A stretch of 64,000 nucleotides of DNA. Source: Candidatus Woesearchaeota archaeon (GTDB lineage: Archaea; Nanobdellota; Nanobdellia; SCGC-AAA011-G17; PNOQ01). A model generated the notes under the pieces. That model was given only the letters and a program-made list of their open reading frames with translations. It was not told where the DNA came from and ran no database searches. The DNA lies in assembly GCA_964481835.1 (NCBI GenBank), contig CAYZTT010000001.1, forward strand, positions 9,964-73,963, in the 5' to 3' direction. Positions 528 through 51,003 of the stretch are shown in pieces. Numbering within the stretch: the first letter of the stretch is position 1; every line of letters begins with the position of its first letter. The translations under genes and the position numbers were made by a program.

Positions 528-1574
528 TTGGGTTTAAAGATGGAGATTGAACTGGGCGGAGAAGAATTTAAGAAAAAGTTATATGTTAGCCCGTTATATG
601 TTCAACTTGATTTGACCAATAAATGTAATTTGAATTGTGCGTATTGTTATAATCGAAATGTAAAATATTCTTCCGAATTGAGTGATATGCAACTTTTAGA
701 CATTGTTAATCAGATAAAAGAGGAAGTTAAACCTCTATTTGTGACTTTTTCTGGAGGAGAACCATTTGTTAGGAAAGAAATTATGTTTAGATTAATTAAA
801 ATATTGAAAGAATCGGATATTGAGATTTTTGTTAATACCAATGGGACTTTAATTGATGAATCTGTGGCTAAAAAAATTGGTGAATTAGATATAGATAAAA
901 TAAATATAAACTTGGATGGTATTGATAAAGAGAAACATGATAACCTAAGGGGATTACCTGGATGCTTCGATAGAGCATTAAAGGCCATTGAATTATTAAA
1001 AAAGCATGCCCCCACCGCCCTAGTTTCTATTCGTACTGTTATTACTAAAGAAAACTACGGAGAGATAGAGCACATTGCAAAGTTCGTTAAGGAAGTGGGG
1101 TTGAAAGAATATATGTTAATTGATTTCATACCCAAATATGATGATCATCATCTCATGATGAAGAAGGAGGAGTGGTTAGAATTTTATGAGATTTATAAAA
1201 AAATAAAGGAGCTTGGATTAAGAATTATTCCAAATCATGCCATTTTATTTTTGGAACGTAAAAGAGATGTGGGAATTCCATTTTGCATGGCCGGTAGAAT
1301 AAAGCTATCTATCGGGGCAAATGGAGATGTCTTTGCTTGCGATCATTTGAAAGAGAGAAAATTTGTTGCGGGCAATGTATTAACTGAGAAAATTTTAGAT
1401 ATCTGGCAGAATTCAGAAATCATAAATAAATTTAGAGGTTTAGAACCCAGTGAATGCAAGGGTTGTGATTTTGTAAAGCAATGCGAAGGAGGATGCCATG
1501 CAATGGCGTATTATATTCATAAAAATGTTGAAGGAATGGATCCATATTGTAAAATGGGATTAGAAAATGGGTAA
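528..1574 (+). CDS. Radical SAM enzyme with C-terminal SPASM domain
   Basis: It has a CNLNCAYC (CX3CX2C) radical-SAM cluster motif and GGEP. The C-terminus carries the Cys pattern of a SPASM/twitch auxiliary-cluster domain (C...C...CKGC...C...C...C). Confidence 0.8.
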   Translation: MGLKMEIELGGEEFKKKLYVSPLYVQLDLTNKCNLNCAYCYNRNVKYSSELSDMQLLDIVNQIKEEVKPLFVTFSGGEPFVRKEIMFRLIKILKESDIEIFVNTNGTLIDESVAKKIGELDIDKININLDGIDKEKHDNLRGLPGCFDRALKAIELLKKHAPTALVSIRTVITKENYGEIEHIAKFVKEVGLKEYMLIDFIPKYDDHHLMMKKEEWLEFYEIYKKIKELGLRIIPNHAILFLERKRDVGIPFCMAGRIKLSIGANGDVFACDHLKERKFVAGNVLTEKILDIWQNSEIINKFRGLEPSECKGCDFVKQCEGGCHAMAYYIHKNVEGMDPYCKMGLENG

Positions 1575-2556
1575 TGAATCTGGGTTACAAATATTAGAGA
1601 TAGAGATAACTACACGATGTAATTTAGATTGTAAACATTGTTATGTAGACAAATCTACCCCTTCCGACATGAAGGATGATTTATTGAAAAAGGTTATTGA
1701 TGAAGGGAGTATTTTAGCCCCCCATGACTTGATTTTTACTGGGGGTGAACCCCTTTTGTGCAGGGACCTCTTATTAAAATTTGCAAATTATGCTAAGAAG
1801 AAGAATTTTGAAAGAGTAGGCCTATTAACCAATGGCCTTTTGATTAATAGTGAAATTGCTAGGGAGTTAAGGGCATTCGATTTCGTACAATTAAGTCTTG
1901 ATGATGTAACCCATAACCGAGAAGGATATAGGATAGATTACTTGGATAGATTAAAACAGGTTGCCTCTCTTTTGAAAGAGGAAGGAATCCATGTGGTATT
2001 TATGTGCACAGTAAATAAACAAAATATAAAAAACATTGGTGCGATTGTTGATTTTGCCAAGAAACTAGGGGTACAAATAGGTTTTAATAGGACTTGCCCA
2101 GTGGGATCCGCCTGTGGATTGAATAAAAATGTTATTTTGGCGGAAGAAGGGCTGAGAGATGCCTTGGTATCAATCTCAAAATTTGTTGATGGAGCGCGGG
2201 TTCGCTGTTCTGACCCCTTGACTATTCTAGTAAATGAGGCTAAAAAGAAAAATGCCTTAGAGAGTGAGAAATCAATTGTTGGAGGATGCACTGCAGGAAT
2301 TGCAGGGTGTTACGTTGCAGTAAATTGTGATGTATACCCTTGCCCATTACTAAGGAAAGCAGTGGACAATGTTTCTGAAAAATCTTTGGTGGAAGTTTGG
2401 GAAACTAATGATATATTTACAAAATTTAGAGATAGAGATAACTTAAAGGGAAAATGCGGAAAGTGTGAATTGAGAAGTGGGTGTGGAGGGTGTAGGGCCA
2501 CGGCACTTTCAATCAAAAAAGATATCTTAGAATCAGACCCCTTCTGCTGGATTTAG
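1567..2556 (+). CDS. Second radical SAM/SPASM enzyme, overlapping upstream gene by 8 nt
   Basis: It has CNLDCKHC (CX3CX2C), GGEP, and a C-terminal Cys-rich SPASM-like segment (GGCTAGIAGCYVAVNCDVYPC...GKCGKCELRSGCGGC). It is translationally coupled to the 528-1574 gene. Confidence 0.8.
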   Translation: MGNESGLQILEIEITTRCNLDCKHCYVDKSTPSDMKDDLLKKVIDEGSILAPHDLIFTGGEPLLCRDLLLKFANYAKKKNFERVGLLTNGLLINSEIARELRAFDFVQLSLDDVTHNREGYRIDYLDRLKQVASLLKEEGIHVVFMCTVNKQNIKNIGAIVDFAKKLGVQIGFNRTCPVGSACGLNKNVILAEEGLRDALVSISKFVDGARVRCSDPLTILVNEAKKKNALESEKSIVGGCTAGIAGCYVAVNCDVYPCPLLRKAVDNVSEKSLVEVWETNDIFTKFRDRDNLKGKCGKCELRSGCGGCRATALSIKKDILESDPFCWI

Positions 2557-2590
2557 TTAGTTTTTTAAATTGTTTTAGATTTCTAGTTTT
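2557..2590 (+). terminator. T-rich tract downstream of the rSAM pair, possible archaeal oligo-T terminator
   Basis: A run of T-stretches (tagttttttaaattgttttagatttctagtttt) lies immediately after the stop codon. Confidence 0.25.
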
Positions 2591-3554
2591 ATGTCAATCC
2601 ATAAGGGAATCTCTGCCCGTAGTGGTTGGAAATTAGGTATCAGCCTATTTCTGTTGCTTATTGCAGGACAATCTCCGCAGGTAAATCGGCATTGGCAAAC
2701 ATTCATTGATCAGAGATTTGATATTGATAGTGACGGTATGCTGGAGCAAATAGCTTTGCAATGGAAAGTAAGTGAATTTAGGGGGATTGATTATCGGCTT
2801 GTGGTGAAAGATTTTGGTTATGGTGGAAGTCCGGAAAGGAGGGTAGAGTTCGATCTTGAGGGCAAACCCGATGTATTTGAAATCTCTGATGGCAATGATG
2901 ATGGAAACTATGAGTTGTTCTTGGAAACAGTAGATGGGAAAACTCGAGATAGATATAGGTTTCGGGGAAATGTCCGAGATGGGTTTGAGCTGCCAGTATT
3001 GGCAGGCACTAGGTATTCTAGATAATTTTATAAGCAGTTTATATTTCCCTTTTTTTATGTTTCTATACAGAATAAATCATCCGGATAATAAAGTTAGGGA
3101 AGAACCTCTGCCCTTTAGAGGATATGTTATCGATTATGGATTTGATGAATCGTATGGGGGCGATGTTGAGAGGGCTACAGAATTATTGCAGAGAGTTATG
3201 CAAAGATCTGGACCCACATGGTTTGCTACCAATATTGATTTTATGTTGGGCGTTTTCTGGGGAGACCCAGAGGGGCACCTGGGCGGGCCTGCACAGGTAA
3301 TGGACTTGTATGGATATATTTTGAATTAGGAATCTGCCCCTATTTCAGATGGCCCTGGCAACCCAGACGCAAAACCATATGTTTTGAAGAATGGAGTATG
3401 GCAATGTGCTAGGCCCACATTTTGTGAGGATAGTTTTATTATGCTGGGTAGAGAAGGGGAGCATCGGAGGCGGTGTGATAATCTTGAAACGGCGATGAGA
3501 ACGTGGCCAAATTTGGAGGATATTGAGCCTTCAGAGACGGTTGAGCTAAGTTAA
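2591..3554 (+). pseudogene. Disrupted gene for a signal-peptide-bearing secreted protein (frameshift plus in-frame TAG)
   Basis: Two overlapping ORFs in different frames (2591-3025 and 2934-3329). The frame of the second stays open after an in-frame TAG at 3327-3329, through to the TAA at 3552-3554. The N-terminus is signal-peptide-like (LGISLFLLLIAG). G+C is visibly higher than the flanks. Confidence 0.35.
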
Positions 3555-11150: not shown

Positions 11151-12332
11151 ATGATATGGGCCGATAAGCATTCTCCCAAATTATTGAAAGATATAAAAGG
11201 AAACTCTATGTCTATTGAATTATTAGTGGATTTTATTCAAAATTTTGAAAAACACCCTAAGAAATCTGTTGTTTTAGTTGGTCCTACGGGTAGTGGGAAG
11301 ACTAGTTTTGTATACGCGTTTGCAGAGGAAAATAATTATGAGGTATTGGAATTAAATGCCTCTGATTTTAGAAATAAGGCGAGCATTGAAGGATTTATGA
11401 ATTCTGCCATGAACCAAATGAGTTTGTTTATGAAACCAAAAATTATCTTAATTGATGAGATTGATGGTTTATCGGGTATGAAAGATCGCGGAGGTGCACA
11501 GGCCCTGGCTAAATTAATGGAAAAGAGTTCTTTCCCAGTTATCATGACTGCTAATGATGTAGAGATAGATAAGCTATCCACATTAGTAAAAAAATCTAAA
11601 GTTTTAGAGTTTAATCAATTAACAAGCTCTGAAGTTGGAGAGCGACTTGGAGAAATACTGAAACTAGAAAATTTGGAAGGAGATGACTTTATCGTAAAGA
11701 GTATTTCTTCCAGAAGCGGGGGAGATATGAGGGCGGCCATAAATGATTTACAAACTTTATTTTCTGGAAAATTAAACAAAGAAAACTTAGAGTTAATTGG
11801 AGATAGGAAACAGGAAGAAGAAATTGAAAATGTATTGAGGTTAATCTTTAAATCTAAGGACATAAATCTTATTGAAAATTCTTTGGATGACATAAAATTA
11901 GATGATTTGCAGGCGTGGGTTGACAGAAACGTTGTTCTCGAATACGATAGGGAAAGTATTCCAGGAGCAATTGACTCTATAAGTAAGGCGGATCTTTTCA
12001 AAGGGAGAATTATGAGATGGCAATACTGGAGATTTTTAGTGTATCAAAAATTCTTTATGTCTAGTGGTGTTGCGCTTTCAAAAAATAAGAAATCTCCTAA
12101 AATTATAAAATATAAAAGGCCCAACATCGGCTTGATGGTTTGGCAATCTAGAATGAAGACTGCTAAAAGAAAATCTATTTCGAATAAATTGGCTGATTAT
12201 TACAATATTTCCCAAAAAAGAGCTTTTCAGATGTTTCCAGACATAGTCCAGTTATTGAAATCTCCTGGCCCTCAAGAAGAATTGGCTTTAGAGGAAGAAG
12301 AAGTCGACTGGATAAGAGAAAAATTATTGTGA
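11151..12332 (+). CDS. rfcL: Replication factor C large subunit
   Basis: MIWADKHSPKLLKDIKGN, Walker A GPTGSGKTS, DEID box, and the RFC-large C-terminal region. Confidence 0.85.
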   Translation: MIWADKHSPKLLKDIKGNSMSIELLVDFIQNFEKHPKKSVVLVGPTGSGKTSFVYAFAEENNYEVLELNASDFRNKASIEGFMNSAMNQMSLFMKPKIILIDEIDGLSGMKDRGGAQALAKLMEKSSFPVIMTANDVEIDKLSTLVKKSKVLEFNQLTSSEVGERLGEILKLENLEGDDFIVKSISSRSGGDMRAAINDLQTLFSGKLNKENLELIGDRKQEEEIENVLRLIFKSKDINLIENSLDDIKLDDLQAWVDRNVVLEYDRESIPGAIDSISKADLFKGRIMRWQYWRFLVYQKFFMSSGVALSKNKKSPKIIKYKRPNIGLMVWQSRMKTAKRKSISNKLADYYNISQKRAFQMFPDIVQLLKSPGPQEELALEEEEVDWIREKLL

Positions 12333-13157
12333 GAATGCCATCTTTCTTAATCGCTTTAACCTGGACTGCAATGTAGGGTGAGTACTCATTAAATTGATTA
12401 AGATTGAACTCCGATATGGATTTGTGATAAATAAATTTGCTAACGCAGGATTTCCAAATTCTATTTTCCTATTTGTTGAATGAATTTTTATCAATGCCTC
12501 CCCAATTATCTTTGGGTTTTTGATCATTTCTGCACCTTTTTTATCGGCAGAGAATTCCCTCATCCGGGGAATTGTTAGATTTATCAGTGTGGCAGATATT
12601 GGTGCCAAAATAGAAAACACAGTAGTTTCAATTATGTTTGTTTCTTTATTTTTGAAAAATATATTGAATGGCCTAGAAACATTGGTTAGGTATAAAACCA
12701 TTGCTGCCAAAAAAGAGGATACAGTGGTTAATAAAATGTCTTTGCTTGATAGGTGTGCGATCTCATGTGCCAGTGCCCCCCTCAATTCTTGATCCTCCAA
12801 TTCAGATAACAATCCGTTTGTAATTGCCAGGTACGGTTTTCTTGGCCTCCCGGTTGCAAAAGCATTTGGAGAATTGCTTGGGATTATGTAAACCTGGGGG
12901 GCCTTTATTTTTGCCCTAGTGGATAGTTCTCTAATTAATTCATGCAATTCTGGTTTTTCAGAGTAGCTTGATTTTCTGGCTTTAAAAATTCTTAAGATTA
13001 GTTTGTCAGAATAGAAAAATGCTGTAATGTTTAGGGCGATCACCAGCAATAAGGCAATAGTCAATCCTGGTGCCCCTGCTAACGCAAAGAAAAAAATCAA
13101 CACGAAGAAGGTTAGAGTTAGTAACAAAACCCACGTTTTTAAGTAATCCACCCACAT
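12324..13157 (-). CDS. htpX: HtpX-like M48 zinc metalloprotease (membrane)
   Basis: HEIAHL zinc-binding motif (GALAHEIAHLSSKD) and N-terminal TM helices. Start trimmed to the ATG at 13155-13157. Confidence 0.8.
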   Translation of the reverse strand: MWVDYLKTWVLLLTLTFFVLIFFFALAGAPGLTIALLLVIALNITAFFYSDKLILRIFKARKSSYSEKPELHELIRELSTRAKIKAPQVYIIPSNSPNAFATGRPRKPYLAITNGLLSELEDQELRGALAHEIAHLSSKDILLTTVSSFLAAMVLYLTNVSRPFNIFFKNKETNIIETTVFSILAPISATLINLTIPRMREFSADKKGAEMIKNPKIIGEALIKIHSTNRKIEFGNPALANLFITNPYRSSILINLMSTHPTLQSRLKRLRKMAFSQ

Positions 13158-13253
13158 TTTTGTAGGATTTAGAATTTTAAGGGATATATAAATGTTATTA
13201 TGCGATTTTTGGAGAATAAAAAGCCTTTTAAGAATAATCCTTGTCCCCCATTT

Positions 13254-14369
13254 ATGGCAAACATGAAGCAAAATGTTCAAAATATTTTGGATTTGGCAGA
13301 CATCAAGCTAAATGGTGATCGGCCTTGGGACATAAAAGTTAGAAATCCCGGATTCTATTCAGGGGTTCTGGCAGGAGGGTCCCTTGCCCTTGGAGAATCT
13401 TACATGGATGGATGGTGGGAATGTGATAATCTTGATCAATTCTTCCATAGAATACTAAAGGCCAATTTAGATAAAAAAGTTGTAAACTTAAGACAACTTA
13501 TTTGGGCAGTTTTAAAGGCTAAATTAATTAATCGCCAGAGTAGATCTAGGGCGCATGTTGTTGGAGAAAAGCATTACGATGCAGGAAATGACCTTTACAG
13601 TTTGATGTTAGATAAGAGACTTACATATAGTTGCGGCTATTGGAAAAGTGCGAAAAACCTTAATAGTGCCCAAGAAGCCAAATTAGATTTGATTTGTAAA
13701 AAACTTGGGCTAAAAAAAGGAATGAGTGTTCTAGACATTGGCTGTGGCTGGGGGAGCTTTGCTAAATTTGCCGCGGAAAAATACAAGGTTAAGGTCGTGG
13801 GCATTACAGTTTCTAAAGAGCAAGTAAAACTTGGAAGAGAAATATGTAAGGGTTTGCCTGTTGAAATAAAGTTGCAAGATTATCGGAGTTTAAGAGGCAA
13901 ATATGATAGGATAGTTTCTGTGGGCATGATTGAACATGTCGGTTGCAAGAATTATAGAAAATACATGAAGGTTGCAAACCGATGTTTAAAGAAAGATGGT
14001 TTATTCTTATTGCATACCATTGGAGGAAACGTGTCTGTAAATGGTGTGGACCCCTGGATAGATAAATATATTTTCCCGAATGGGATGTTGCCTTCTGTAA
14101 AACAACTTTCAAAGGCAAGTGAGGGTCTGTTTGTCATGGAAGATTGGCATAATTTTGGGACGGATTACGATAAAACCTTGATGGCATGGCATAAGAACTT
14201 TATAGAAGATTGGGATAAAATAAAGGATAAATATAATGCAAGATTTTTTAGAATGTGGGAATATTATCTTTTATGCTGTGCAGGCTCATTTAGGGCTAGA
14301 AAAAATCAATTGTGGCAGATTGTATTCTCCAAAGATGGTTTAAAAGAGGGTTATCGGAGCATACGGTAG
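13254..14369 (+). CDS. cfa: Cyclopropane-fatty-acyl-phospholipid synthase family SAM-dependent methyltransferase (bacterial type)
   Basis: Long collinear similarity to E. coli Cfa as I recall it: DIKVRNPGFY...GESYMDGWWECDNLD, VLDIGCGWG SAM motif, RIVSVGMIEHVG, LLHTIG, VDPWIDKYIFPNGMLPS, FVMEDWHNFGTDYDKTLMAW, YYLLCCAGSFRAR, LWQIVFS. Confidence 0.85.
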   Translation: MANMKQNVQNILDLADIKLNGDRPWDIKVRNPGFYSGVLAGGSLALGESYMDGWWECDNLDQFFHRILKANLDKKVVNLRQLIWAVLKAKLINRQSRSRAHVVGEKHYDAGNDLYSLMLDKRLTYSCGYWKSAKNLNSAQEAKLDLICKKLGLKKGMSVLDIGCGWGSFAKFAAEKYKVKVVGITVSKEQVKLGREICKGLPVEIKLQDYRSLRGKYDRIVSVGMIEHVGCKNYRKYMKVANRCLKKDGLFLLHTIGGNVSVNGVDPWIDKYIFPNGMLPSVKQLSKASEGLFVMEDWHNFGTDYDKTLMAWHKNFIEDWDKIKDKYNARFFRMWEYYLLCCAGSFRARKNQLWQIVFSKDGLKEGYRSIR

Positions 14370-14410
14370 CTTTTAGAAAGTTTTAATAAAGAACCTTCTT
14401 ATTTAGGAAT

Positions 14411-15757
14411 ATGGCTTATGATATTGTCATAGGTAGGACTGATTCAGACAGAAAAAAGCTTGGTGATGCAGGAACTATTTTCTTAGGTAGGCACTATGTA
14501 AAAATGGGACAGACCGTTTCATTAAGCTCCAATATTCGGATGGATGTAGCAAGAGCACATGTTGTTTTAGTTTCTGGAAAGCGGGGAAGTGGGAAGTCAT
14601 ATACCTTGGGGGTTATGGCCGAAGAAATGTCTTCTCTGCCCGAAGAAGTAGCTGAAAATCTTGGGATTCTGATATTTGATACGATGGGTATTTTTTGGAC
14701 TATGAAATATGCTAATCAGAAAGAAGAAGACCTTTTAGCTGGATGGAAATTGGCCCCCAAAAAACTAGGCACTATTGATGTATATACTCCCCATGGTTTT
14801 TCTGAAGAATATAAAAGAAAAAAGATCCCGGTAGACTTTCCATTCTCTATTCGAACTTCAGAGTTGAATGCGGGAGATTGGGCTAACGTATTTAATCTGG
14901 ATCCTATGCAACCCATAGGAATATTGATTGAGAGAGTTATTTCTGAATTTCAGGATTCGGGAAAGGCATATTCAATAGAGGATGTTATTGAGAGAATAAA
15001 AAAAGAGAGTAAAATCGAAAATAATGTGAAGGATGCAGCCATTAACTTATTCGAAGCAACAAAGAGTTGGGGTTTATTTTCGGAAAGGGGAACCGAAATA
15101 AAAGATTTGATTAAACCTGGAAGGGTATCTGTTTTGGACGTAAGTTGTTATTCTAACCTTGCGGGGAATTGGGGCATAAAAAATCTTGTTGTTGGTTTGA
15201 TTTGTAAGAAATTATTAATTGAGCGTATGGCAGCGAGGAAATTTGAGGAAATTCATACTATTGAAAGTGGAGAGAGTTATTTTGGTTTTGGATCAAGGAA
15301 AAGAGATAAAGATGATATGCCCTTGGTTTGGTTAATGCTGGATGAGGCCCATGAGTTCTTGCCGAAGGATGGAAAAACTGCAGCCAGCGATTCCCTGATC
15401 CAACTTCTTAGAGAGGGAAGGCAGCCTGGAATTTCAATGATATTAGCGACCCAACAACCTGGAGAAATCCATAAAGATGTCATAACCCAATCGGATATTG
15501 TACTCAGCCATAGGGTTACTGCAAGAAAGGATATTACTGCGTTGAATGATATGATGCAAACTTATCTATTGAGTGATATTCAAACATATATCAATAATTT
15601 GCCTAGACTTAAAGGATCTGCAATTATCTTGGATGATAATTCTGAGCGAATATTCCCGATGAATGTTCGCCCAAGATTTACATGGCATGGCGGAGAGGCA
15701 CCAACTGCGGTTAAAGGAGAAGGAAAGCTTGTTGAAGAATTAAACTTTGAGATCTAA
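14411..15757 (+). CDS. HerA/FtsK-superfamily P-loop ATPase (DUF87-like), standalone
   Basis: Walker A VSGKRGSGKSYTLG, Walker B/DEAH-like LMLDEAHEFLP, ILATQQP arginine-finger region. Only a short N-terminal region precedes the ATPase core. Confidence 0.6.
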   Translation: MAYDIVIGRTDSDRKKLGDAGTIFLGRHYVKMGQTVSLSSNIRMDVARAHVVLVSGKRGSGKSYTLGVMAEEMSSLPEEVAENLGILIFDTMGIFWTMKYANQKEEDLLAGWKLAPKKLGTIDVYTPHGFSEEYKRKKIPVDFPFSIRTSELNAGDWANVFNLDPMQPIGILIERVISEFQDSGKAYSIEDVIERIKKESKIENNVKDAAINLFEATKSWGLFSERGTEIKDLIKPGRVSVLDVSCYSNLAGNWGIKNLVVGLICKKLLIERMAARKFEEIHTIESGESYFGFGSRKRDKDDMPLVWLMLDEAHEFLPKDGKTAASDSLIQLLREGRQPGISMILATQQPGEIHKDVITQSDIVLSHRVTARKDITALNDMMQTYLLSDIQTYINNLPRLKGSAIILDDNSERIFPMNVRPRFTWHGGEAPTAVKGEGKLVEELNFEI

Positions 15758-39027: not shown

Positions 39028-39873
39028 TTATTCTTCAATATCGTCAAGGACATTTCTCACTTTTTTTAGTTGCTCTTTTGATACATGCGTGTAAATTTGA
39101 GTAGTAGACAGATCCGAATGGCCAAGTAACTCCTGAATTATTCGTATATCTACTCCTGCATCTAGATTGTGGGTGGCAAAGGAGTGCCTTAGTTTGTGTG
39201 CAGTCACCTTTTTGCTTATTTTTGCCAATTTTGCGGTATTTGATATTATTTTTTGAACATTTCTTGCCGAAAGGTGATCTTTTTTCCCAGGAAAGAGATA
39301 TTGTTCTCTTTCGTCTATTGTTTGTATATATTTCTTAATTTCATGTGTTAGTTTCTCTGATAAGAAAAATGCCCTATCTTTTCCGCCTTTTCCAGATCTG
39401 ACCCACCCCATGCCATTTTCTAATTCAATATCCATGATCTTTAGGTTTACACATTCACTCACCCTCAACCCAGTGGAGTATAGTAGTCTCATAATCAATA
39501 GGGATTTTTTTGAAGGAGCTCTTTCAAACAATCTCCTTACTTCTTCTTTTGTTAGGAATATCGGTATTGACTTGGGGATTTTTGGAGTTTTTAGATTTAC
39601 TATACTCATCCCCATAACTTCATGGAAAAAGAACTTTAATGCCGCCTTCTTTACTGCGATGGATCTGGGAGCATGATCTGAGTCGGAAACTAAATATGCA
39701 AAATATTCTTTGATATCTTCTTCAAGAATTTGGGGAGGATGCCTATCTTCAGGAAGATTCTTATTTACATGATTTAGAAAAAGTTTGACATTTTGGACAT
39801 ATGATTCTCTTGTTCTTTGAGAGAACCCCCTTAATTTCATTTCAGTAACTAGCCTTTTTAGACAAATCCCCAT
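39028..39873 (-). CDS. Tyrosine site-specific recombinase (XerA/XerC/D-like integrase)
   Basis: N-terminal SAM-like core-binding domain. The catalytic residues are R (GLRVSE), K, HxxR (HKLRHSFAT), R and Y (LGHSDLSTTQIYTHV). 281 aa. Confidence 0.85.
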   Translation of the reverse strand: MGICLKRLVTEMKLRGFSQRTRESYVQNVKLFLNHVNKNLPEDRHPPQILEEDIKEYFAYLVSDSDHAPRSIAVKKAALKFFFHEVMGMSIVNLKTPKIPKSIPIFLTKEEVRRLFERAPSKKSLLIMRLLYSTGLRVSECVNLKIMDIELENGMGWVRSGKGGKDRAFFLSEKLTHEIKKYIQTIDEREQYLFPGKKDHLSARNVQKIISNTAKLAKISKKVTAHKLRHSFATHNLDAGVDIRIIQELLGHSDLSTTQIYTHVSKEQLKKVRNVLDDIEE

Positions 39874-40015
39874 GAAAATCCCTCTTTTTAGAGTATTTTT
39901 AGGATAAATGGTATATAAAAGTTCGCATAAGGTATGTTAGGCGAATTAGTGTTCTATTTTGCCTTCTTGAGGAGTAAATAATACTCTATTCAGAGAAATT
40001 TAAAAATCTACCGAA

Positions 40016-40396
40016 TTATGCAAGCTCTTCCAAAAGTGCTTGATATTCCCGGGACCTTCTTAAGGCATCTTTCTTTTTGCCTTTCCGTGTAAGAATGTAA
40101 ATTGCTCCTTCGCCTTCTTCCATCCTTCTTTCTACTGCGAAGGAAGTTGCACTAAACCCAGTTATATCTGTCAAATTCTCTGGGAGTTCATATCCTGAAT
40201 GGGACCTGAATGGACCTGAACGGCAAGTTAAATCTATTATCCTAAGTTCTCTGTCAAAGTACAATTCATACCCTTTGCTAGTATTAACTACATGAATCAC
40301 ATCTCCATCTCTCTCAGGAACGCTTGCAAATAAGGACTCTATAGTCCTTACTAGATTAGAGGAAAAATCGTGTGGGATGAATATTGGGGCTTTCAT
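40016..40396 (-). CDS. Hypothetical protein (GC-elevated block)
   Basis: 126 aa with no motif. Same strand and compositional block as the recombinase. Confidence 0.3.
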   Translation of the reverse strand: MKAPIFIPHDFSSNLVRTIESLFASVPERDGDVIHVVNTSKGYELYFDRELRIIDLTCRSGPFRSHSGYELPENLTDITGFSATSFAVERRMEEGEGAIYILTRKGKKKDALRRSREYQALLEELA

Positions 40397-40433
40397 TTTG
40401 AATTATTTATCTTTTAATTTTTGCTAAAAGGTT

Positions 40434-40769
40434 TTAAACATGCAAATAGAGTCCCTGATGCCTTCCTTCTTGACGCTTCTCTACGAGAAAATAGTCTGGA
40501 TCTGGGCCTATAAATTCATAAAATCTCCGGGGCATTTCGCTCCCAGATAATGAAGTGAAGGGACCTAGTTCCTTTAAATCTCCGAGTTCCTTTAACTCTT
40601 GTACCTTTGAAGGTTTTCTTCCGAGAGGATATAGTAAAAATTCTCCGTCTTTTGTTTGGGCTACACCCACTGCAATCGCGTTCTCAAAGGTTGCCAGAGT
40701 TAGCTCTATTGATCTCCTTAGCCTTTGCCATCTTGGCACTCTCACTGATGTAGGTTGTTTTTGTTTCAT
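40434..40769 (-). CDS. Hypothetical protein (GC-elevated block)
   Basis: 111 aa, basic N-terminus, no motif. Confidence 0.3.
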   Translation of the reverse strand: MKQKQPTSVRVPRWQRLRRSIELTLATFENAIAVGVAQTKDGEFLLYPLGRKPSKVQELKELGDLKELGPFTSLSGSEMPRRFYEFIGPDPDYFLVEKRQEGRHQGLYLHV

Positions 40770-40812
40770 TTTTTAATTGCGGAGGTTTGTAGAAAATTAG
40801 CTATTTATAAAA

Positions 40813-41115
40813 CTATCTCTCTTTTCTCTCTGGCCTTTTCAGGGGTTCTGCCTTTACGGCTTTGGGGTTTAATCCTAAAATTATATCCACTAGTTCTGCT
40901 ACTTTTCCTGTTTCTTGGGGATCTTGTGTAGCTACAACCCCTACTTTTCTTTTTAATATACCTTCTGCTGCGAGATAGCTCTCGACCCACTTCGTAAGTC
41001 CTTCTTCCCCGTCTTTGAAGGTTGAAAGATTTGCATGGTTGAATCCCCCGTATGCATCTAGAGACAATAAATATTGGCCATTTACCATATTGTATCCTGC
41101 GGATAATAGTTTCAT
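40813..41115 (-). CDS. Hypothetical protein (GC-elevated block)
   Basis: 100 aa, no motif. Confidence 0.3.
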   Translation of the reverse strand: MKLLSAGYNMVNGQYLLSLDAYGGFNHANLSTFKDGEEGLTKWVESYLAAEGILKRKVGVVATQDPQETGKVAELVDIILGLNPKAVKAEPLKRPERKER

Positions 41116-41212
41116 TTTTCTTAATATCTCCTATAAAATAAGGACCGCCAGGCCCTTTTTAAATGTATCTATTTGTAGCTATTGTATAGTGACAAAAGAT
41201 TTAAAGAAAATA

Positions 41213-41440
41213 TTACATATGTTTTTTCATATATTCATACCAAATGGCAACTAGGAATGGTACAAATGCAATTAGAATCCAATTTATTTTATGATACCAA
41301 GCCCCAAATACAACTAAAACAAATGTTATTAAGAATAATGCCAATGTTAAAGAATCAAAGCTTTTGTTCACTGTTTGGGCAGGCTTTTTAATTTTCCTTT
41401 TAGTTGACTTCTTTTTTGTAACCTTCTTTTTCTTGGGCAT
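41213..41440 (-). CDS. Small membrane protein with Lys-rich N-terminus
   Basis: MPKKKKVTKKKSTKRKIKKP followed by two TM helices. Confidence 0.35.
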   Translation of the reverse strand: MPKKKKVTKKKSTKRKIKKPAQTVNKSFDSLTLALFLITFVLVVFGAWYHKINWILIAFVPFLVAIWYEYMKKHM

Positions 41441-41540
41441 TAAATATCACCTATTAATTAATTTTTGAAATTTTAAGTATATAAATCTTATGTTTGAAAA
41501 GCAAAAAGTTTAATAACTAGTTTAGTTAAAAAGTTAAATA

Positions 41541-42185
41541 ATGGTTTTTAGATTGTTCAAAAAAAGACGCGATGTGGAAGAGAAACTGTCTGGTTTGCAC
41601 GATAGTCTGAATGATTCTTTTTCTAAAATTAAGGATGATATGGGGAGTGTTGGGGAGTGGATTAAACACTTCGATCAAACTAAAGAAACTCACCATAGTA
41701 AAATAGAGAATTTAGATACCCGATTGAGATCTGTTGAAGAATTCGTTATGAACCTTATAGAACAGTCTCCCGTCGAGGAAATGTCCAAACAGCTGTCCAA
41801 ACAAGGACAAACAGCTGTCCGTCCGAATCAAACGGATAGTGTGTCCAAACAGATGTTTGAACAGCCGTCCAAACAGCAAAAAGTTGTCCAAACGGATCTA
41901 GAGAGGGCATTAATTAGTTTGACAGCAATGGAAAGGGCATTAGTGTGGAGCCTTTTGAATACAGACATTCTATTAAGTTATGAGGATATGGGTAGGATTT
42001 TAGGCAAAGACCAATCTACAGTGAGAGGACAAATAAATAATATAAAAAGGAAGATTCCTGGGCTAATAGAGGAGAAAAGTGAGGACACAGGAAAGAAGAG
42101 ATACTATGTAAATGAGGGAAAGAAGAGGGATATATGGGTAAAATATACGGGTAAACGGGCAAAAAAGGTCGAAAGTGAGAGCTAA
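41541..42185 (+). CDS. Coiled-coil protein with internal SKQ repeats and C-terminal sigma-70-region-4/HTH_10-like DNA-binding domain
   Basis: N-terminal heptad-like region, (x-S-K-Q) x4 encoded by gtccaaacag repeats, then LTAMERALVWSLLN...LSYEDMGRILGKDQSTVRGQINNIKRKI. Confidence 0.45.
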   Translation: MVFRLFKKRRDVEEKLSGLHDSLNDSFSKIKDDMGSVGEWIKHFDQTKETHHSKIENLDTRLRSVEEFVMNLIEQSPVEEMSKQLSKQGQTAVRPNQTDSVSKQMFEQPSKQQKVVQTDLERALISLTAMERALVWSLLNTDILLSYEDMGRILGKDQSTVRGQINNIKRKIPGLIEEKSEDTGKKRYYVNEGKKRDIWVKYTGKRAKKVESES

Positions 42186-42260
42186 TTTTGAGTAATATTG
42201 ATTAATTTGGGGTATTTTAAGGAATAAATCAGGGCATTTATGTTAAAAGTGAGAGTAGAA

Positions 42261-43058
42261 TCAGATATAATGACGCAAATGGCCAGTTAACCGTGTTTGT
42301 GAGTGATCCTTCTCTCTGAGAGCTAGAAGATTTTCTAGCATTTTGAGCGTTCTAAACTCTTTTTTTATGGTTAAGTATACCTTTCTATTGGGAGATACAT
42401 TCTTTGTGAGAGGTATTTTCCTTAAAACAAGGTCGCTTATGTAATCTCTAACTGCACTTTGAGATATTAGGAGATCTTTTGCCAGATCAGCATATGTTAT
42501 GGGGGCCTTAAGTTCTTCTTCTAATCGATAGATGGCCATAAAAACCCTGAATTGTGCCTCTGTAAGGCTCAGAAACCTCGATTCTAGGTCCTCTTTAAGG
42601 GTTTGAACGTCATAATAATCTTTTAATCCTTCTGTCGGAGCAGTGTCTGTCTGTCGTCTTTCTGTCGGCAGGTTGTCGGCAGGTTGTCGGCGCAGGACCC
42701 CTTCATTTCCTATGGAACTTTCTTGGATTTTCGGCTTAGGAGGCTCAAAACCATTAAATTTGGGGGTTTTAGGGTTTTTGGGGGTTTTTGTCTCTGGTTC
42801 AGGCACTCTTTGCATGTGTAGAGATTGCTCTAACAAGACCTTAATCTCCTTTATTTCACTCTCAAGCCCTGAAATGCGCAAATCTAGCTCAGAAATAGAT
42901 TCTTTTACCTTTTGAAAGGACAATCTTACTTTACTTTGAAAATCCAATTTAACCCCAATGTAGAAATCTGTGTCGAATTTATAACAATTTATGTGTCGGA
43001 GCAGTGTCGTCTGTGTGTCGAAAGTGTGTCGAAGTGAGAGTATTCTTGTATTAGGCAC
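42261..43058 (-). CDS. Paralogous coiled-coil / low-complexity linker / HTH_10-like protein (non-ATG start likely)
   Basis: Same architecture as 41541-42185: coiled coil (ISELDLRISGLESEIKEIKVLLEQ), P/K/T-rich linker, and C-terminal LSLTEAQFRVFMAIY...ITYADLAKDLLISQSAVRDYISDLVLRKI. The ORF begins with GTG. It is convergent with its paralog. Confidence 0.4.
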   Translation of the reverse strand: MPNTRILSLRHTFDTQTTLLRHINCYKFDTDFYIGVKLDFQSKVRLSFQKVKESISELDLRISGLESEIKEIKVLLEQSLHMQRVPEPETKTPKNPKTPKFNGFEPPKPKIQESSIGNEGVLRRQPADNLPTERRQTDTAPTEGLKDYYDVQTLKEDLESRFLSLTEAQFRVFMAIYRLEEELKAPITYADLAKDLLISQSAVRDYISDLVLRKIPLTKNVSPNRKVYLTIKKEFRTLKMLENLLALREKDHSQTRLTGHLRHYI

Positions 43059-43100
43059 TATACGGAGTTATAGGTATTTTGTGAGAATACGCCTTGAGAA

Positions 43101-43640
43101 CTATAAATTCTGGGGTTTGACTTGGTTATTGTAGATATCGATGAATGAGGTGTGGTGGAGGTTTATCCCCGCAGATATAAAGGATTCTGCAATACCTTTT
43201 ATCAGTTCTTTTTCATTGAGATTCTCTGCATTGAATCTAAGGAGATTTGTGAGAGTGAGTGTACATAGGAACCCTTCATTTAGCTCTAGGCAAACACTTC
43301 TATTCCCTTCTTTTACCGTCGAGGATTCTAGATCGATATTAATGTTTCCCTTGGTGAGATTCCTTTCTTGTTTAGAAAATCCCCATGGCAAGAGCTCGTT
43401 AATGATGGCTTCTTCCATTGTCGAAGCCACTGTCTGTTTGTCGGCAATGCCCAAATTTATTACTTTTCCAAGGTATTTTGTAGACTTTTGTCGAGATTGT
43501 TTTTTCTTTTTGTTATATCTATTTTCTACAAGATATGCATATTCTTTTCCGTTGATAACTTTCTTCCTTATGAACATATTATTATTGTACAAACATAATT
43601 TATAAGAATTACCCATATACTGAAAACCTATCTGACTCAC
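43101..43640 (-). CDS. Hypothetical protein with basic N-terminal segment (FIRKKVINGKEYAYLVENRYNKKKKQSRQKSTKYLGKV)
   Basis: 179 aa with no assignable family. Its start overlaps the 3' end of the JAMM gene by ~30 nt. Confidence 0.3.
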   Translation of the reverse strand: MSQIGFQYMGNSYKLCLYNNNMFIRKKVINGKEYAYLVENRYNKKKKQSRQKSTKYLGKVINLGIADKQTVASTMEEAIINELLPWGFSKQERNLTKGNINIDLESSTVKEGNRSVCLELNEGFLCTLTLTNLLRFNAENLNEKELIKGIAESFISAGINLHHTSFIDIYNNQVKPQNL

Positions 43641-44130: not shown

Positions 44131-45020
44131 GCATGTAGATGTAGATGTAATTGTTTTGTTATTTTTCTAATGTGTTTCTTCCGGATATAGTGTAGTACTA
44201 TCCCTGCAAGTATAAGAATTGTTCCCCCCAGTAATATTCTAAAATCCAGGGTTTCATTTATGAACATTATTGCGAAGGCTATTGATGCGATAGGGGTTAC
44301 TAAGAGACTTATTATTGAAATTGTATCTGCATGTAATCTCTTTGCGCTATATCCAATTAACAAGAATGGAAGTGCGGTGCATAATACCCCCAATACGATT
44401 AAGAGAGGTATGTGGGGCAATATATTATTTCCTAGACCAAATATGAATACAAAGGGGACATAAAATAGTGTTGCAAAGAAAAAGAACCACATGATGGACC
44501 CTATTGAGTGTGTTTTCTCTTCAGATCTAAGGAAAACTAATAATAGTGCATAAAATAATGCGTTACCAAGAGATATCATATTCCCTATAAAAAATCCACT
44601 TTTGAAATTGAATGGATTTATGACAGATAACCCAATCAATGCTACAATAATTGCTAATTTTTGGTTGAACTTTAATTTTTCCTTTAGGAAAAAGAATGCA
44701 AAGATAGTTACAAAGACTACAGAAAAGGAGGAAATTAATATTACATTTGAAACTGGTGCATATGAAAGCGCATATATGAATGACCCTAAAGCTAATGCCT
44801 TTAACATTCCAATTGATATATAATTTGGCAGATCTTTTCTTTTTACTCTATATGCTTTTTTATCTAACATGGGCATTAAAATTGCTAGAAAGATAGATGC
44901 AAATAATAACCTAAAGAAAGTGATTGCCACAGGGTTTATGTCTGGCACAAGAACTTTAGTTATTACACCTACAAATCCTACCAGGATCCCTGCAAGGATT
45001 ATATTGAACTTGGATTTCAT
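44127..45020 (-). CDS. EamA/DMT-superfamily transporter (10 TM)
   Basis: Two EamA-like repeats. Start trimmed to MKSKFNIILAGILVGF to avoid overlap with the divergent nth-like gene. Confidence 0.65.
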   Translation of the reverse strand: MKSKFNIILAGILVGFVGVITKVLVPDINPVAITFFRLLFASIFLAILMPMLDKKAYRVKRKDLPNYISIGMLKALALGSFIYALSYAPVSNVILISSFSVVFVTIFAFFFLKEKLKFNQKLAIIVALIGLSVINPFNFKSGFFIGNMISLGNALFYALLLVFLRSEEKTHSIGSIMWFFFFATLFYVPFVFIFGLGNNILPHIPLLIVLGVLCTALPFLLIGYSAKRLHADTISIISLLVTPIASIAFAIMFINETLDFRILLGGTILILAGIVLHYIRKKHIRKITKQLHLHLHA

Positions 45021-45069
45021 TATTAGCTTTAGGGTTAAGTTTTTAAAAATGTTTGCCCAAACTAATTGT

Positions 45070-45678
45070 ATGAATAAAAAGAAAGCTGTGCAGCAATTGG
45101 GTGAATTGAGAAAGAATACTAAAAATATGCGATTGACTGCAGAAAAATGGGATAGGCCATGGAAAACTCTGATTGCCATATTGTTGTCTGCTAGGACCCG
45201 TGATGAAATGACTATCCCTGTAGCTAGAGAGTTGTTTAAGAGATATTCTAGTTTGAATAAACTCAGTAATGCAAAATTAAGGGATGTTGAGAAAATAATC
45301 AGACCGATAAATTTTTACAAAAATAAATCCAAAAATGTTTTAGGTTGCTCAAAAATGTTATTGGAGACCCATGGGGGAAAGGTCCCTAAGAATTTTGAGG
45401 AGTTGTTACATTTGCCTGGTGTTGGTAGGAAGACTGCCAATGTATTTTTGTCTGAATATGGAGGTGCAGCAATCGGTGTGGACACACACGTGTTTTACAT
45501 TTCCAAGAAACTGAGTTGGAGTAATGGAAAAACCCCTGAGAAGGTAGAGGGCGACCTTAAGAGATTGTTTCCTAAGAACTACTGGACCAAGGTAAACCCA
45601 GTATTGGTAAGATTCGGAAAAACGTATACAAGTAGAAAGGTGAAAGATAAATTGCTTCTTAAGATTAAAAATTTATGA
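45070..45678 (+). CDS. nth: HhH-GPD DNA glycosylase, endonuclease III-like, lacking the C-terminal Fe-S loop
   Basis: Helix-hairpin-helix LPGVGRKTANVFL with the catalytic Lys, and VDTHV with the catalytic Asp. There is no C-terminal Cys cluster. The start is uncertain (45049 or 45070). Confidence 0.7.
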   Translation: MNKKKAVQQLGELRKNTKNMRLTAEKWDRPWKTLIAILLSARTRDEMTIPVARELFKRYSSLNKLSNAKLRDVEKIIRPINFYKNKSKNVLGCSKMLLETHGGKVPKNFEELLHLPGVGRKTANVFLSEYGGAAIGVDTHVFYISKKLSWSNGKTPEKVEGDLKRLFPKNYWTKVNPVLVRFGKTYTSRKVKDKLLLKIKNL

Positions 45679-49887: not shown

Positions 49888-49914
49888 TTTGTGAATATAG
49901 AAAGTTGAAAAGAA

Positions 49915-50178
49915 TTAGATTATGTCTTCTTCGGCAACAACTATAAAATCACCGATTGCGATTACTGCGCTAAAAGGAATTAATAATCGTCCTTCGTCTG
50001 TTCTTTCCAAATCTAAATTAGAAGCAAGTGATGTTGGACTTTTCAGTTCAAGCTGCAATAGTTCTCCTGTTTTTGTTTCAAAATGAATATTTCCTAAATC
50101 TCCAAATTTCTTTCCAGTCTTACTAACTATTGTTTTTCCAAGAAGATGTTTTGAATATCTTTTATCATTATTTGACAT
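49915..50178 (-). CDS. PRC-barrel domain protein
   Basis: 87 aa. LLGKTIVSKTGKKFGDLGNIHFETKTGELLQL is the typical PRC-barrel core. Confidence 0.45.
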   Translation of the reverse strand: MSNNDKRYSKHLLGKTIVSKTGKKFGDLGNIHFETKTGELLQLELKSPTSLASNLDLERTDEGRLLIPFSAVIAIGDFIVVAEEDII

Positions 50179-50228
50179 TTTAGGGGCCTCCTTAAATAAG
50201 GGAGTATTATCTGCTTTATAAAATTTTC

Positions 50229-50540
50229 TTAATCTACTTCTAGGGCATTAGCCAATGTTTCTCTTAATTCTTCAAATGAAGACTTTATACTGTTCTTTAT
50301 TTCTACTATAAGTGGTTCATCATTAACTGATTGGGCAATAGATGCTCCCGTTTGGATATATTCATTATCTGATTGTATTGCTTGATCAACAGACAGACTG
50401 CCCATTATTGTAAAAAATAAAATCATTACTATAATAGCAATTACAATTAATTTTAATGCAGTTCTTGTGAATAAATGTTTAGATATTTCTAAGACTATTA
50501 CCCCTACTACTATTATAATAATAATTGATATTATATCCAT
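50229..50540 (-). CDS. Small membrane protein
   Basis: 103 aa with two TM helices. Confidence 0.3.
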   Translation of the reverse strand: MDIISIIIIIVVGVIVLEISKHLFTRTALKLIVIAIIVMILFFTIMGSLSVDQAIQSDNEYIQTGASIAQSVNDEPLIVEIKNSIKSSFEELRETLANALEVD

Positions 50541-51003
50541 ATCAATATAATAAGAGTTTTTATTTATAAGGTTTTTTATGGCTGAATAAATCGGGGACTC
50601 CCACCCCTATTTCTATTGGAATTATTGTATTTATGGATGTGATGGGTATTTCATATGGAATTATTTTTTAAGGTATTTTTTGTATGGGGTTTTACGTGTG
50701 TTTAAGTGTATTTTTATTGATTTTTAGTAAAAATTTTTATGTTTCAAATTTATGGTTTAGAAGTCTTGAAAGTGAAGAATTTGATTATATATTATATATT
50801 ATATTTATAAGTTTTATTATTATATATATATTATATTATTATATATATATTTTATAGTGTTACTATTGAAAAGTTTCTATAGGAAGAAGGGGTGTACCCA
50901 TCTGCAAACATGAATCAAGAAAGTTCCATTGGAAATATAGGTCCGTGTCTCTATTTTTTAGTATAGCAATATTTATAATCATAATTTATCAGTCGTTTTT
51001 AAG
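50541..51003. other. Predicted chromosomal replication origin (oriC) with ORB-like repeats and AT-rich unwinding element
   Basis: A 460-bp non-coding region sits immediately upstream of orc1/cdc6. It holds three copies of a (t)tcyatTGGAAt core: 50611-50624 tttctattggaatt, 50651-50663 ttcatatggaatt, and the palindromic 50923-50936 gttccattggaaat. A (ta)n-type AT tract lies at ~50784-50858, and a G-string ggggactcccacccc at 50594-50608. Confidence 0.6.
50971..50978 (+). promoter_or_regulatory. TATA-box-like element for orc1/cdc6 (leaderless spacing)
   Basis: atttataa lies ~26 nt upstream of the ATG at 51004. Confidence 0.3.

Follow-up and report, generated by a model that had tools for sequence, protein, structure and literature searches.

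A canonical Escherichia coli-type cyclopropane-fatty-acyl-phospholipid synthase gene, probably of bacterial origin, at a lineage-specific insertion site in a Woesearchaeota-type archaeon

Background

Cyclopropane-fatty-acyl-phospholipid synthases (Cfa) have as their only substrate the unsaturated acyl chains of phospholipids that already form part of a bilayer, and in the E. coli-type enzymes membrane binding is mediated by an N-terminal domain of ~100 residues. Here we describe a gene for such an enzyme (cfa) in an archaeon; it is located on the forward strand of a 64,000-nt stretch (hereafter "the window", whose numbering is used for all coordinates unless another locus is named) of the 112-kb contig CAYZTT010000001.1. 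The closest described system is the E. coli enzyme itself (PDB 6BQC; NF008686/PRK11705), which shares with the window protein the two-domain architecture, the S-adenosylmethionine (SAM) motif, five site residues and the same length, apart from 12 residues by which the window protein is shorter at the N-terminus. The window gene differs in that it belongs to a Woesearchaeota-type archaeal chromosome and apparently has a leaderless promoter of the archaeal kind (a prediction), and in that the occurrence of its substrate in the archaeal host is presumed. The Cfa structures 7qos and 5z9o and the mycobacterial enzymes CmaA1, CmaA2, PcaA and MmaA have the Pfam CMAS catalytic domain in common with the window protein, but are far more distant from it (E=1e-61 to 1e-27).

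Two further groups of relatives come from bacteria and from archaea. Homologs from the candidate phyla radiation (CPR/Patescibacteria; Saccharibacteria-labelled, Falkowbacteria, Nealsonbacteria and Moranbacteria) are collinear with the window protein over their full length at 59-69% identity, and their hosts are likewise ultrasmall symbionts with reduced genomes; unlike the present host, however, they are bacteria with fatty-acyl membranes. Homologs from other Woesearchaeota/Nanoarchaeota metagenome-assembled genomes (MAGs), namely those from oxygen-deficient zones (ODZ; PMC10936187) and the NCBI-annotated P0078, P0114, P0076 and P0120, belong to the same family and the same archaeal group and are 68-73% identical, whereas the window gene has another genomic context and falls into a tight clade of its own (with P0002-P0005, 100% bootstrap), with no supported link to them.

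The presence of Cfa in Woesearchaeota has already been published: Zhang et al. (2024, mBio; PMC10936187) found cfa in five marine ODZ Woesearchaeota MAGs, and FabG/FabI/FabZ in DPANN MAGs. Accession strings were sought in the text of that paper, to see if the present contig is from one of these MAGs, and did not occur there. Castelle et al. (2021; PMC8204110) described bacterial fatty-acid genes and a bacterial glycerol-3-phosphate dehydrogenase in Woesearchaeota. The point about Woesearchaeota Cfa is restated in a commentary (PMC11481508) and in a study of Black Sea lipids (PMC11868695), the latter speculating on the modification of host-derived bacterial lipids, and the NCBI annotation already names Cfa in Woesearchaeota MAGs. 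This literature supports the plausibility of fatty-acyl lipids in these cells. What is added here is incremental: a gene product that is canonical at every conserved site, the precise site of insertion, the dating of this event relative to close relatives, and the selective retention of the gene.

Identity and integrity of the gene product

The window protein matches the Pfam family CMAS (PF02353) with E=3e-91, and the NCBIfam equivalog model NF008686/PRK11705 with 627.2 bits (cutoff 400) over positions 15-382 of the 383 in the profile. Its scores with the NCBIfam models for CfaB, Brucella-type Cfa and mycolic acid methyltransferases are far under the respective cutoffs, so that it is not a member of any of these subfamilies. 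Comparison with the structure of E. coli Cfa (PDB 6bqc) yields E=4.8e-142, with query residues 9-369 aligned to chain residues 22-381, and in a global alignment the identity is 57% (210/370); the E. coli sequence used for the latter agrees with the 6bqc alignment and has the expected residues at the expected numbers. Over its entire length the window protein is collinear with E. coli Cfa (382 aa), and the alignment reveals no extra N-terminal or other domain, although no dedicated prediction of signal peptides or secretion signals stands behind this statement.

The glycine-rich SAM-binding motif VLDIGCGWG is identical to E. coli residues 171-179. C127, E227, H254, I256 and Y305 of the window protein correspond to C139, E239, H266, I268 and Y317 in E. 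coli, which form the bicarbonate/catalytic site of that enzyme, and all five are identical. The region of ~100 residues that precedes the catalytic domain is also present: the 6bqc alignment begins with query residue 9 and takes in the conserved GESYMDGWWECD block, and this part of the protein is the predicted membrane-binding domain. Among 199 aligned homologs, 90 columns show at least 95% conservation across the 79 bacteria-labelled sequences; none of these near-invariant columns is altered either in the window protein or in its four close orthologs.

A preliminary description of the window, made from the sequence alone, had quoted a series of blocks shared with E. coli Cfa (VLDIGCGWG, RIVSVGM.EHVG, LLHTIG, DPWI.KYIFPNG.LPS, FVMEDWHNFG.DYD.TLMAW, CAG.FRAR and LWQ.VFS) and collinearity over nearly the whole length. 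Every one of the blocks is found in the window protein, and the structure match, the global identity and the PRK11705 score bear out the collinearity. These comparisons confirm that the gene encodes a full-length canonical E. coli-type Cfa with an intact predicted active site.

Archaeal host and the site of insertion

The host is unambiguously archaeal. The window, with a GC content of ~35%, encodes both the small and the large subunit of replication factor C (RFC), FEN1, PolB, Cdc48, a RadA-like protein, topoisomerase IA and LonB, as well as Orc1/Cdc6, the PolD subunits DP1 and DP2, and Hef; MCM, TBP, eIF1A and eIF2-beta are encoded just upstream of the window on the same contig. The archaeal replication-gene neighborhood noted in the preliminary description is thus real and extends into the flank. 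All named best matches of the large PolD subunit DP2 are from "Candidatus Woesearchaeota", "Nanoarchaeia" or "Nanoarchaeota" archaea, and as judged from these relatives the host is a Woesearchaeota-type DPANN archaeon.

The cfa gene is located between htpX and a gene for a HerA-like ATPase. The order comprising the large RFC subunit, htpX (reverse strand), cfa, herA-like and trm5 (reverse strand), with FEN1 and PolB further on, is kept in orthologous loci whose Cfa is 94, 88 and 85% identical to the window protein. Relatives with an empty site were sought among homologs of the HerA-like neighbor, and three of them, L091, L092 and L093, were inspected. In L093 (HerA 93% identical) the corresponding slot is likewise occupied by cfa. 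L092 (HerA 78%) has a gap of 85 bp between htpX and herA that does not contain cfa, and in L091 (HerA 80%) the slot is occupied instead by a gene for a 174-aa hydrolase of the haloacid dehalogenase (HAD) family (L091:7429-7953). No remnant of cfa could be detected by tblastn in L091 or L092. The 85-bp spacer of L092 has recognizable equivalents of both halves of the two intergenic regions that flank cfa in the window, i.e. the htpX-proximal TATA region and the herA-side TAGAAAG-TTTAATAAA element.

Besides the window, carriers of cfa at this site are L093, P0002, P0004 and P0005. In a tree of HerA homologs, rooted with more distant members, the cfa-carrying genomes are nested with 100% support inside a 14-member clade, which itself has 100% support, and the L091 and L092 groups are successive outgroups to them. 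Because the carriers form a nested clade and the outgroups have either an empty site or another gene, a single gain between htpX and herA is indicated; ancestral presence would require at least two losses. Horizontal gain of cfa by a lineage-specific insertion at this junction is therefore well supported by the comparison of these loci.

The junction itself looks like a small hotspot for gene insertion. A copy of the herA-type TTAGAAAG...TAAATAA element lies in front of the HAD gene of L091. The adjacent htpX shows a pattern of its own: HtpX of the cfa-carrying clade is only 58-59% identical to its counterparts at L091:6479-7315 and L092:7076-7915; these two share 77% identity, and the values for the remaining flanking genes are 65-88%. 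For HtpX, a protease for the quality control of membrane proteins, this may point to rapid divergence or partial replacement at about the time when cfa was gained.

Distribution, phylogeny and donor

In a scan of one genome per species of the Genome Taxonomy Database (GTDB), relatives of the window protein were found at no fewer than 593 loci, of which the best 80 were classified. Most of these 80 belong to Patescibacteria/CPR, Chloroflexota, Desulfobacterota, Bacteroidota, Gammaproteobacteria, Spirochaetota and other bacteria; about five are archaeal, i.e. four from Woesearchaeota/Nanoarchaeota and one from a Methanosarcinales-labelled contig. In a large protein collection the nearest Cfa sequences are 94, 88, 88, 87 and 85% identical to the window protein, after which the identity drops to 73% or less, and other DPANN archaea, CPR bacteria and diverse other bacteria all fall between 60 and 73%.

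We calculated a neighbor-joining tree for 199 Cfa sequences (370 columns, 200 bootstraps). The window protein and P0002-P0005 form a clade with 100% bootstrap, which has no supported sister on a star-like backbone. At least three separate groups of archaeal sequences, one of them a seven-member Woesearchaeota/Nanoarchaeota clade with 97.5% bootstrap, are interspersed with bacterial ones. By raw distance the nearest sequences outside the window clade are P0014 and P0029, from this Woesearchaeota/Nanoarchaeota clade, followed by a member of an Atribacteria/Marinimicrobia/CPR clade. We gave up naming a donor from this phylogeny, given the star-like backbone.

Most parsimoniously, the ultimate origin of cfa is bacterial. 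Since the most similar sequences from outside the clade belong to the Woesearchaeota/Nanoarchaeota group, the proximate donor may have been another DPANN archaeon or a CPR bacterium. The preliminary description had proposed acquisition from bacteria, to be checked against a phylogeny of bacterial and archaeal Cfa. Its horizontal component stands, with a mostly bacterial family, a nested presence, two outgroups without cfa and archaeal sequences interleaved with bacterial ones, but a direct bacterial donor does not follow from a tree in which the window clade lacks a supported sister.

A test of operon context, in which the proteins of the window were set against the open reading frames (ORFs) of 80 related loci and the neighbors of cfa in L006, L009, L010, L025 and L019 were scanned with Pfam, revealed neither shared synteny around cfa nor lipid genes. 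One recurring neighbor (window 44869-45678) was dismissed as a linked gene, as it encodes an unrelated endonuclease III-like HhH-GPD protein. A phage vector was also considered and set aside: tblastn returned five fragmentary matches only, in phages of Salmonella, Listeria and Enterococcus, none of them relevant.

Bacteria of the CPR and archaea of the DPANN radiation stand out among the closest relatives, the CPR loci with Cfa at 59-69% identity being L007/L086, L012, L015, L017, L027, L039, L040 and L045. The Saccharibacteria-labelled contig L007/L086 (cfa at L086:10001-11122; 69% identity) presents a true bacterial context with genes for RbfA, IF-2, L19, FtsH and GyrA. On the Methanosarcinales-labelled contig (label as given), a 63%-identical Cfa (L019:9974-11116) is encoded beside a radical SAM protein, with an integrase-family gene nearby, and the contig also encodes a GTPase of the archaeal/eukaryotic NOG1 type; Cfa may thus occur in archaea outside DPANN.

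Composition, selection and age

Atypical composition is expected only for recent transfers. Among 40 genes of the window cfa is unremarkable, with a GC content of 0.375 (mean 0.357, z 0.6), a GC content at third codon positions of 0.349 (z 1.3) and a codon fit of z -0.5 (rank 14 of 40), so that no atypical composition was found. In comparison with the 88%-identical ortholog in L089, the ratio of nonsynonymous to synonymous substitution rates (dN/dS) is 0.033 for cfa, 0.020 for the large RFC subunit and 0.023 for HtpX, and synonymous sites between cfa orthologs are saturated. As judged from this ratio and from the 90 unaltered near-invariant columns, cfa is under strong purifying selection on the canonical sequence. 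The host-like composition, together with the synteny kept down to 85% Cfa identity and the saturated synonymous sites, supports well a transfer that is old and ameliorated; host-adapted codon usage and a transfer that is not recent had both been suggested beforehand, and both hold.

The ortholog in the sister lineage L093 behaves differently. Its cfa (L093:6843-7958) occupies the orthologous slot and the flanking genes are 82-93% identical to those of the window, yet the Cfa proteins are only 68% identical. Tajima relative-rate tests reveal an excess of change on the L093 branch (e.g. 59 vs 15 unique substitutions, p = 3e-7). The five catalytic residues are retained in the L093 protein, in which changes affect seven of the 90 near-invariant columns, more than in any other sequence that we examined. 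The nucleotide identity between the window and L093 genes dips in mid-gene; a mosaic or replacement origin of the L093 allele by recombination was nevertheless rejected, as every segment is still nearest to the window clade and the acceleration lies on the L093 branch. The pattern looks like relaxed or redirected selection, or a functional shift, in this lineage.

Start codon and expression signals

The coordinates of cfa, its borders and its putative signals are collected in Table 1. Automatic gene calls start cfa at 13200, which would give a product of 389 aa. We rejected this start: orthologs are 368-371 aa long and begin with MVNMKQ or MKQ, at the equivalents of 13254 (where the window reads MANMKQ) or 13263, and the promoter geometry speaks against the 13200 ATG, which falls within the region of the htpX promoter and is only a few bases away from its TATA-like element. 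The real start is thus probably 13254 (or 13263).

Upstream of this start we identified an element AAAAAGCC-TTTTAAGAAT that resembles the herA element TAGAAAG-TTTTAATAAA in both sequence and spacing. The herA-type motif precedes herA also in the empty-site relative L092, and in L091 it precedes both the HAD gene and herA. Read against the known architecture of archaeal promoters, with a transcription factor B recognition element (BRE) next to a TATA box, these elements suggest that cfa has a putative promoter of the archaeal type and a leaderless mRNA.

Table 1. Features of the cfa locus in window coordinates
Feature	Position	Strand	Remarks
cfa coding sequence	13254..14369	+	371 aa; E. coli-type cyclopropane-fatty-acyl-phospholipid synthase; N-terminal lipid-binding domain and C-terminal SAM methyltransferase domain
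In-frame upstream extension	13200..13253	+	From automatic gene calls (389-aa product); probably untranslated
Putative archaeal BRE/TATA of cfa, AAAAAGCC-TTTTAAGAAT	13218..13235	+	Centered ~24 nt upstream of the 13254 ATG; conserved in L093
Divergent htpX-cfa intergenic region, left insertion border	13158..13253	.	htpX-proximal half recognizable in the empty-site relatives L092 and L091
htpX TATA-like element TTTATATAT	13184-13192	-	Within the htpX-cfa intergenic region
Cfa-herA intergenic region, right insertion border	14370..14410	+	Contains the herA BRE/TATA-like element
herA BRE/TATA-like element TAGAAAG-TTTTAATAAA	14374-14390	+	~25 nt upstream of herA
htpX-like M48 membrane protease, left flank	12324..13157	-	277 aa; Pfam Peptidase_M48, 2.3e-31; divergent from cfa; adjoins cfa in all cfa-carrying relatives
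HerA/DUF87-like ATPase, right flank	14411..15757	+	Pfam DUF87; marker for locating empty-site relatives

Function, substrate and alternative explanations

The explanation that we favor, and consider probable, is that the gene encodes a functional canonical Cfa of horizontal and ultimately bacterial origin, which was inserted in the ancestor of the clade, domesticated and kept by selection, and which acts on an unsaturated fatty-acyl phospholipid. According to this scenario, a segment of ~1.2 kb entered the htpX-herA junction in the ancestor from which a small marine clade of Woesearchaeota-type DPANN archaea descends, and was then given expression signals of the archaeal style, ameliorated and retained by strong purifying selection. 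The product would be a soluble enzyme that binds the membrane peripherally and, with S-adenosylmethionine and bound bicarbonate, adds a methylene group to the cis double bond of unsaturated acyl chains in bilayer phospholipids. Its substrate in vivo, which we infer from the complete conservation of the enzyme, with no lipid genes on the part of the contig that was searched, would be an unsaturated fatty-acyl phospholipid of the archaeon's own membrane, either obtained from a bacterial partner by scavenging or the product of bacterial-type lipid genes in another part of the genome, such as other Woesearchaeota are reported to have. The role of cyclopropanation would be to stabilize the membrane under stress, as in bacteria.

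Several observations weigh against this explanation. A search for lipid synthesis and uptake genes, envisaged in the preliminary description for the genome, was run on ~82 kb of the 112-kb contig (the 64-kb window and ~18 kb of flank, 8-10 kb at each end), and no fatty-acid, phospholipid, glycerol-phosphate or lipid-uptake gene was found there; nor is a lipid-gene neighbor conserved beside cfa in the other DPANN loci. To our knowledge, no archaeon has ever been demonstrated to contain cyclopropane fatty acids, and the papers cited here offer genomic predictions only. The neighbor-joining tree identifies no bacterial sister group of the window clade, and the promoter was assigned by eye in an AT-rich genome. 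Finally, the acceleration in L093 could mean that the canonical function is of selective value to only part of the clade.

An unlikely alternative is that the same chemistry is directed to another substrate, so that methylenation or methylation takes place at a double bond of an archaeal lipid (an isoprenoid such as unsaturated archaeol) or of a different olefin. It would suit an archaeal host, as canonical archaeal membranes have no fatty-acyl chains, and the lack of fatty-acid and phospholipid genes on ~82 kb; besides, the CMAS/Cfa fold family includes the mycolic acid methyltransferases (found among the PDB matches), which act on other lipids. A switch of substrate would, however, be expected to leave lineage-specific changes around the active site, and there are none in the window gene, whose product passes the PRK11705 equivalog cutoff by a wide margin, keeps every near-invariant bacterial column, and is 60-73% identical to Cfa of ordinary and CPR bacteria, both of which have fatty-acyl membranes. 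Moreover, the double bonds of isoprenoids are trisubstituted, whereas Cfa uses a cis-disubstituted olefin.

It is also decidedly unlikely that the enzyme acts on lipids outside the steady-state membrane of the archaeon, e.g. on the phospholipids of a bacterial host where an episymbiont is in contact with it, or on scavenged bacterial lipids in transit. Very similar Cfa proteins are indeed carried by DPANN archaea and CPR bacteria, both of them ultrasmall symbionts with poor lipid biosynthesis, with 69% identity reached by the Saccharibacteria-labelled contig. The window protein, however, matches E. coli Cfa from end to end with no added domain in the alignment, and the E. coli enzyme modifies the membrane of its own cell, from the cytoplasmic side; furthermore, we know of no host for this Woesearchaeota lineage.

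Vertical inheritance of an ancient archaeal gene, with the likeness to bacterial Cfa due to slow evolution, would agree with the presence of cfa in several Woesearchaeota/Nanoarchaeota genomes, with a composition like that of its neighbors and with the star-like backbone of the tree. We regard it as very improbable, as the closest outgroups have an empty site or the HAD gene within a conserved syntenic block, the archaeal sequences form at least three groups among bacteria, and only about five of the best 80 GTDB species loci are archaeal. In addition, other DPANN genomes carry cfa in unrelated contexts, which fits repeated transfers. An artefact, in the form of contig chimerism, contaminating bacterial DNA or a functionless passenger gene in decay, to which a metagenome assembly and the doubtful start codon of the gene callers might point, is effectively refuted by the identical arrangement of cfa in at least five independent assemblies from different samples (JGI, ENA and Logan), which removes the concern about chimerism, by synteny in orthologous loci at 85-94% identity, and by an intact reading frame with a dN/dS of 0.03 and host-like codon usage.

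If the favored explanation of a selected, canonical Cfa is followed, the conserved archaeal gene provides indirect evidence for the presence or handling of bacterial-type lipids in some DPANN archaea, because Cfa needs acyl chains in a bilayer. This bears on the "lipid divide", on the membrane supply of ultrasmall symbionts and on the use of cyclopropane fatty acids as purely bacterial biomarkers. We further propose, tentatively and as a possibility that falls somewhat short of even chances, that the lineage's own membrane holds unsaturated fatty-acyl phospholipids, scavenged or made by genes elsewhere, which are remodelled by cyclopropanation. If true, a natural archaeon would straddle the "lipid divide", which would be considerably more interesting than the presence of a gene, and the contrast between the canonical, conserved Cfa and the diverging Cfa of L093 would distinguish lineages that depend on such lipids from those that do not.

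Other features of the window

Several regions of the window with no evident relation to cfa deserve a brief mention. At 528-1574 and 1567-2556 two radical SAM/SPASM proteins are encoded in tandem, followed by small ORFs (2591-3025 and 2934-3329) without a family match; the arrangement at 528-3329 recalls the peptide-maturase clusters of ribosomally synthesized and post-translationally modified peptides. An AT-rich intergenic region of 1.1 kb (49888-51003, ~29% GC) is located directly upstream of orc1/cdc6, which is followed by the genes for PolD DP1 and DP2. The region upstream of orc1/cdc6 is the usual site of an archaeal replication origin; a search for origin repeats in this one revealed only weak AT-rich direct and inverted repeats. 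The large PolD subunit (53692-57267, 1188 aa) has no intein, whereas several homologs from Woesearchaeota/Nanoarchaeia are ~1620-1680 aa long and contain intein/LAGLIDADG domains (PF14890, PF14528). A tyrosine recombinase (Phage_integrase) is encoded at 39028-39873 and followed by several ORFs without a family match at 40016-43640; the region 39028-43640 may be an integrated element, or else a XerA-type recombinase with unrelated neighbors.

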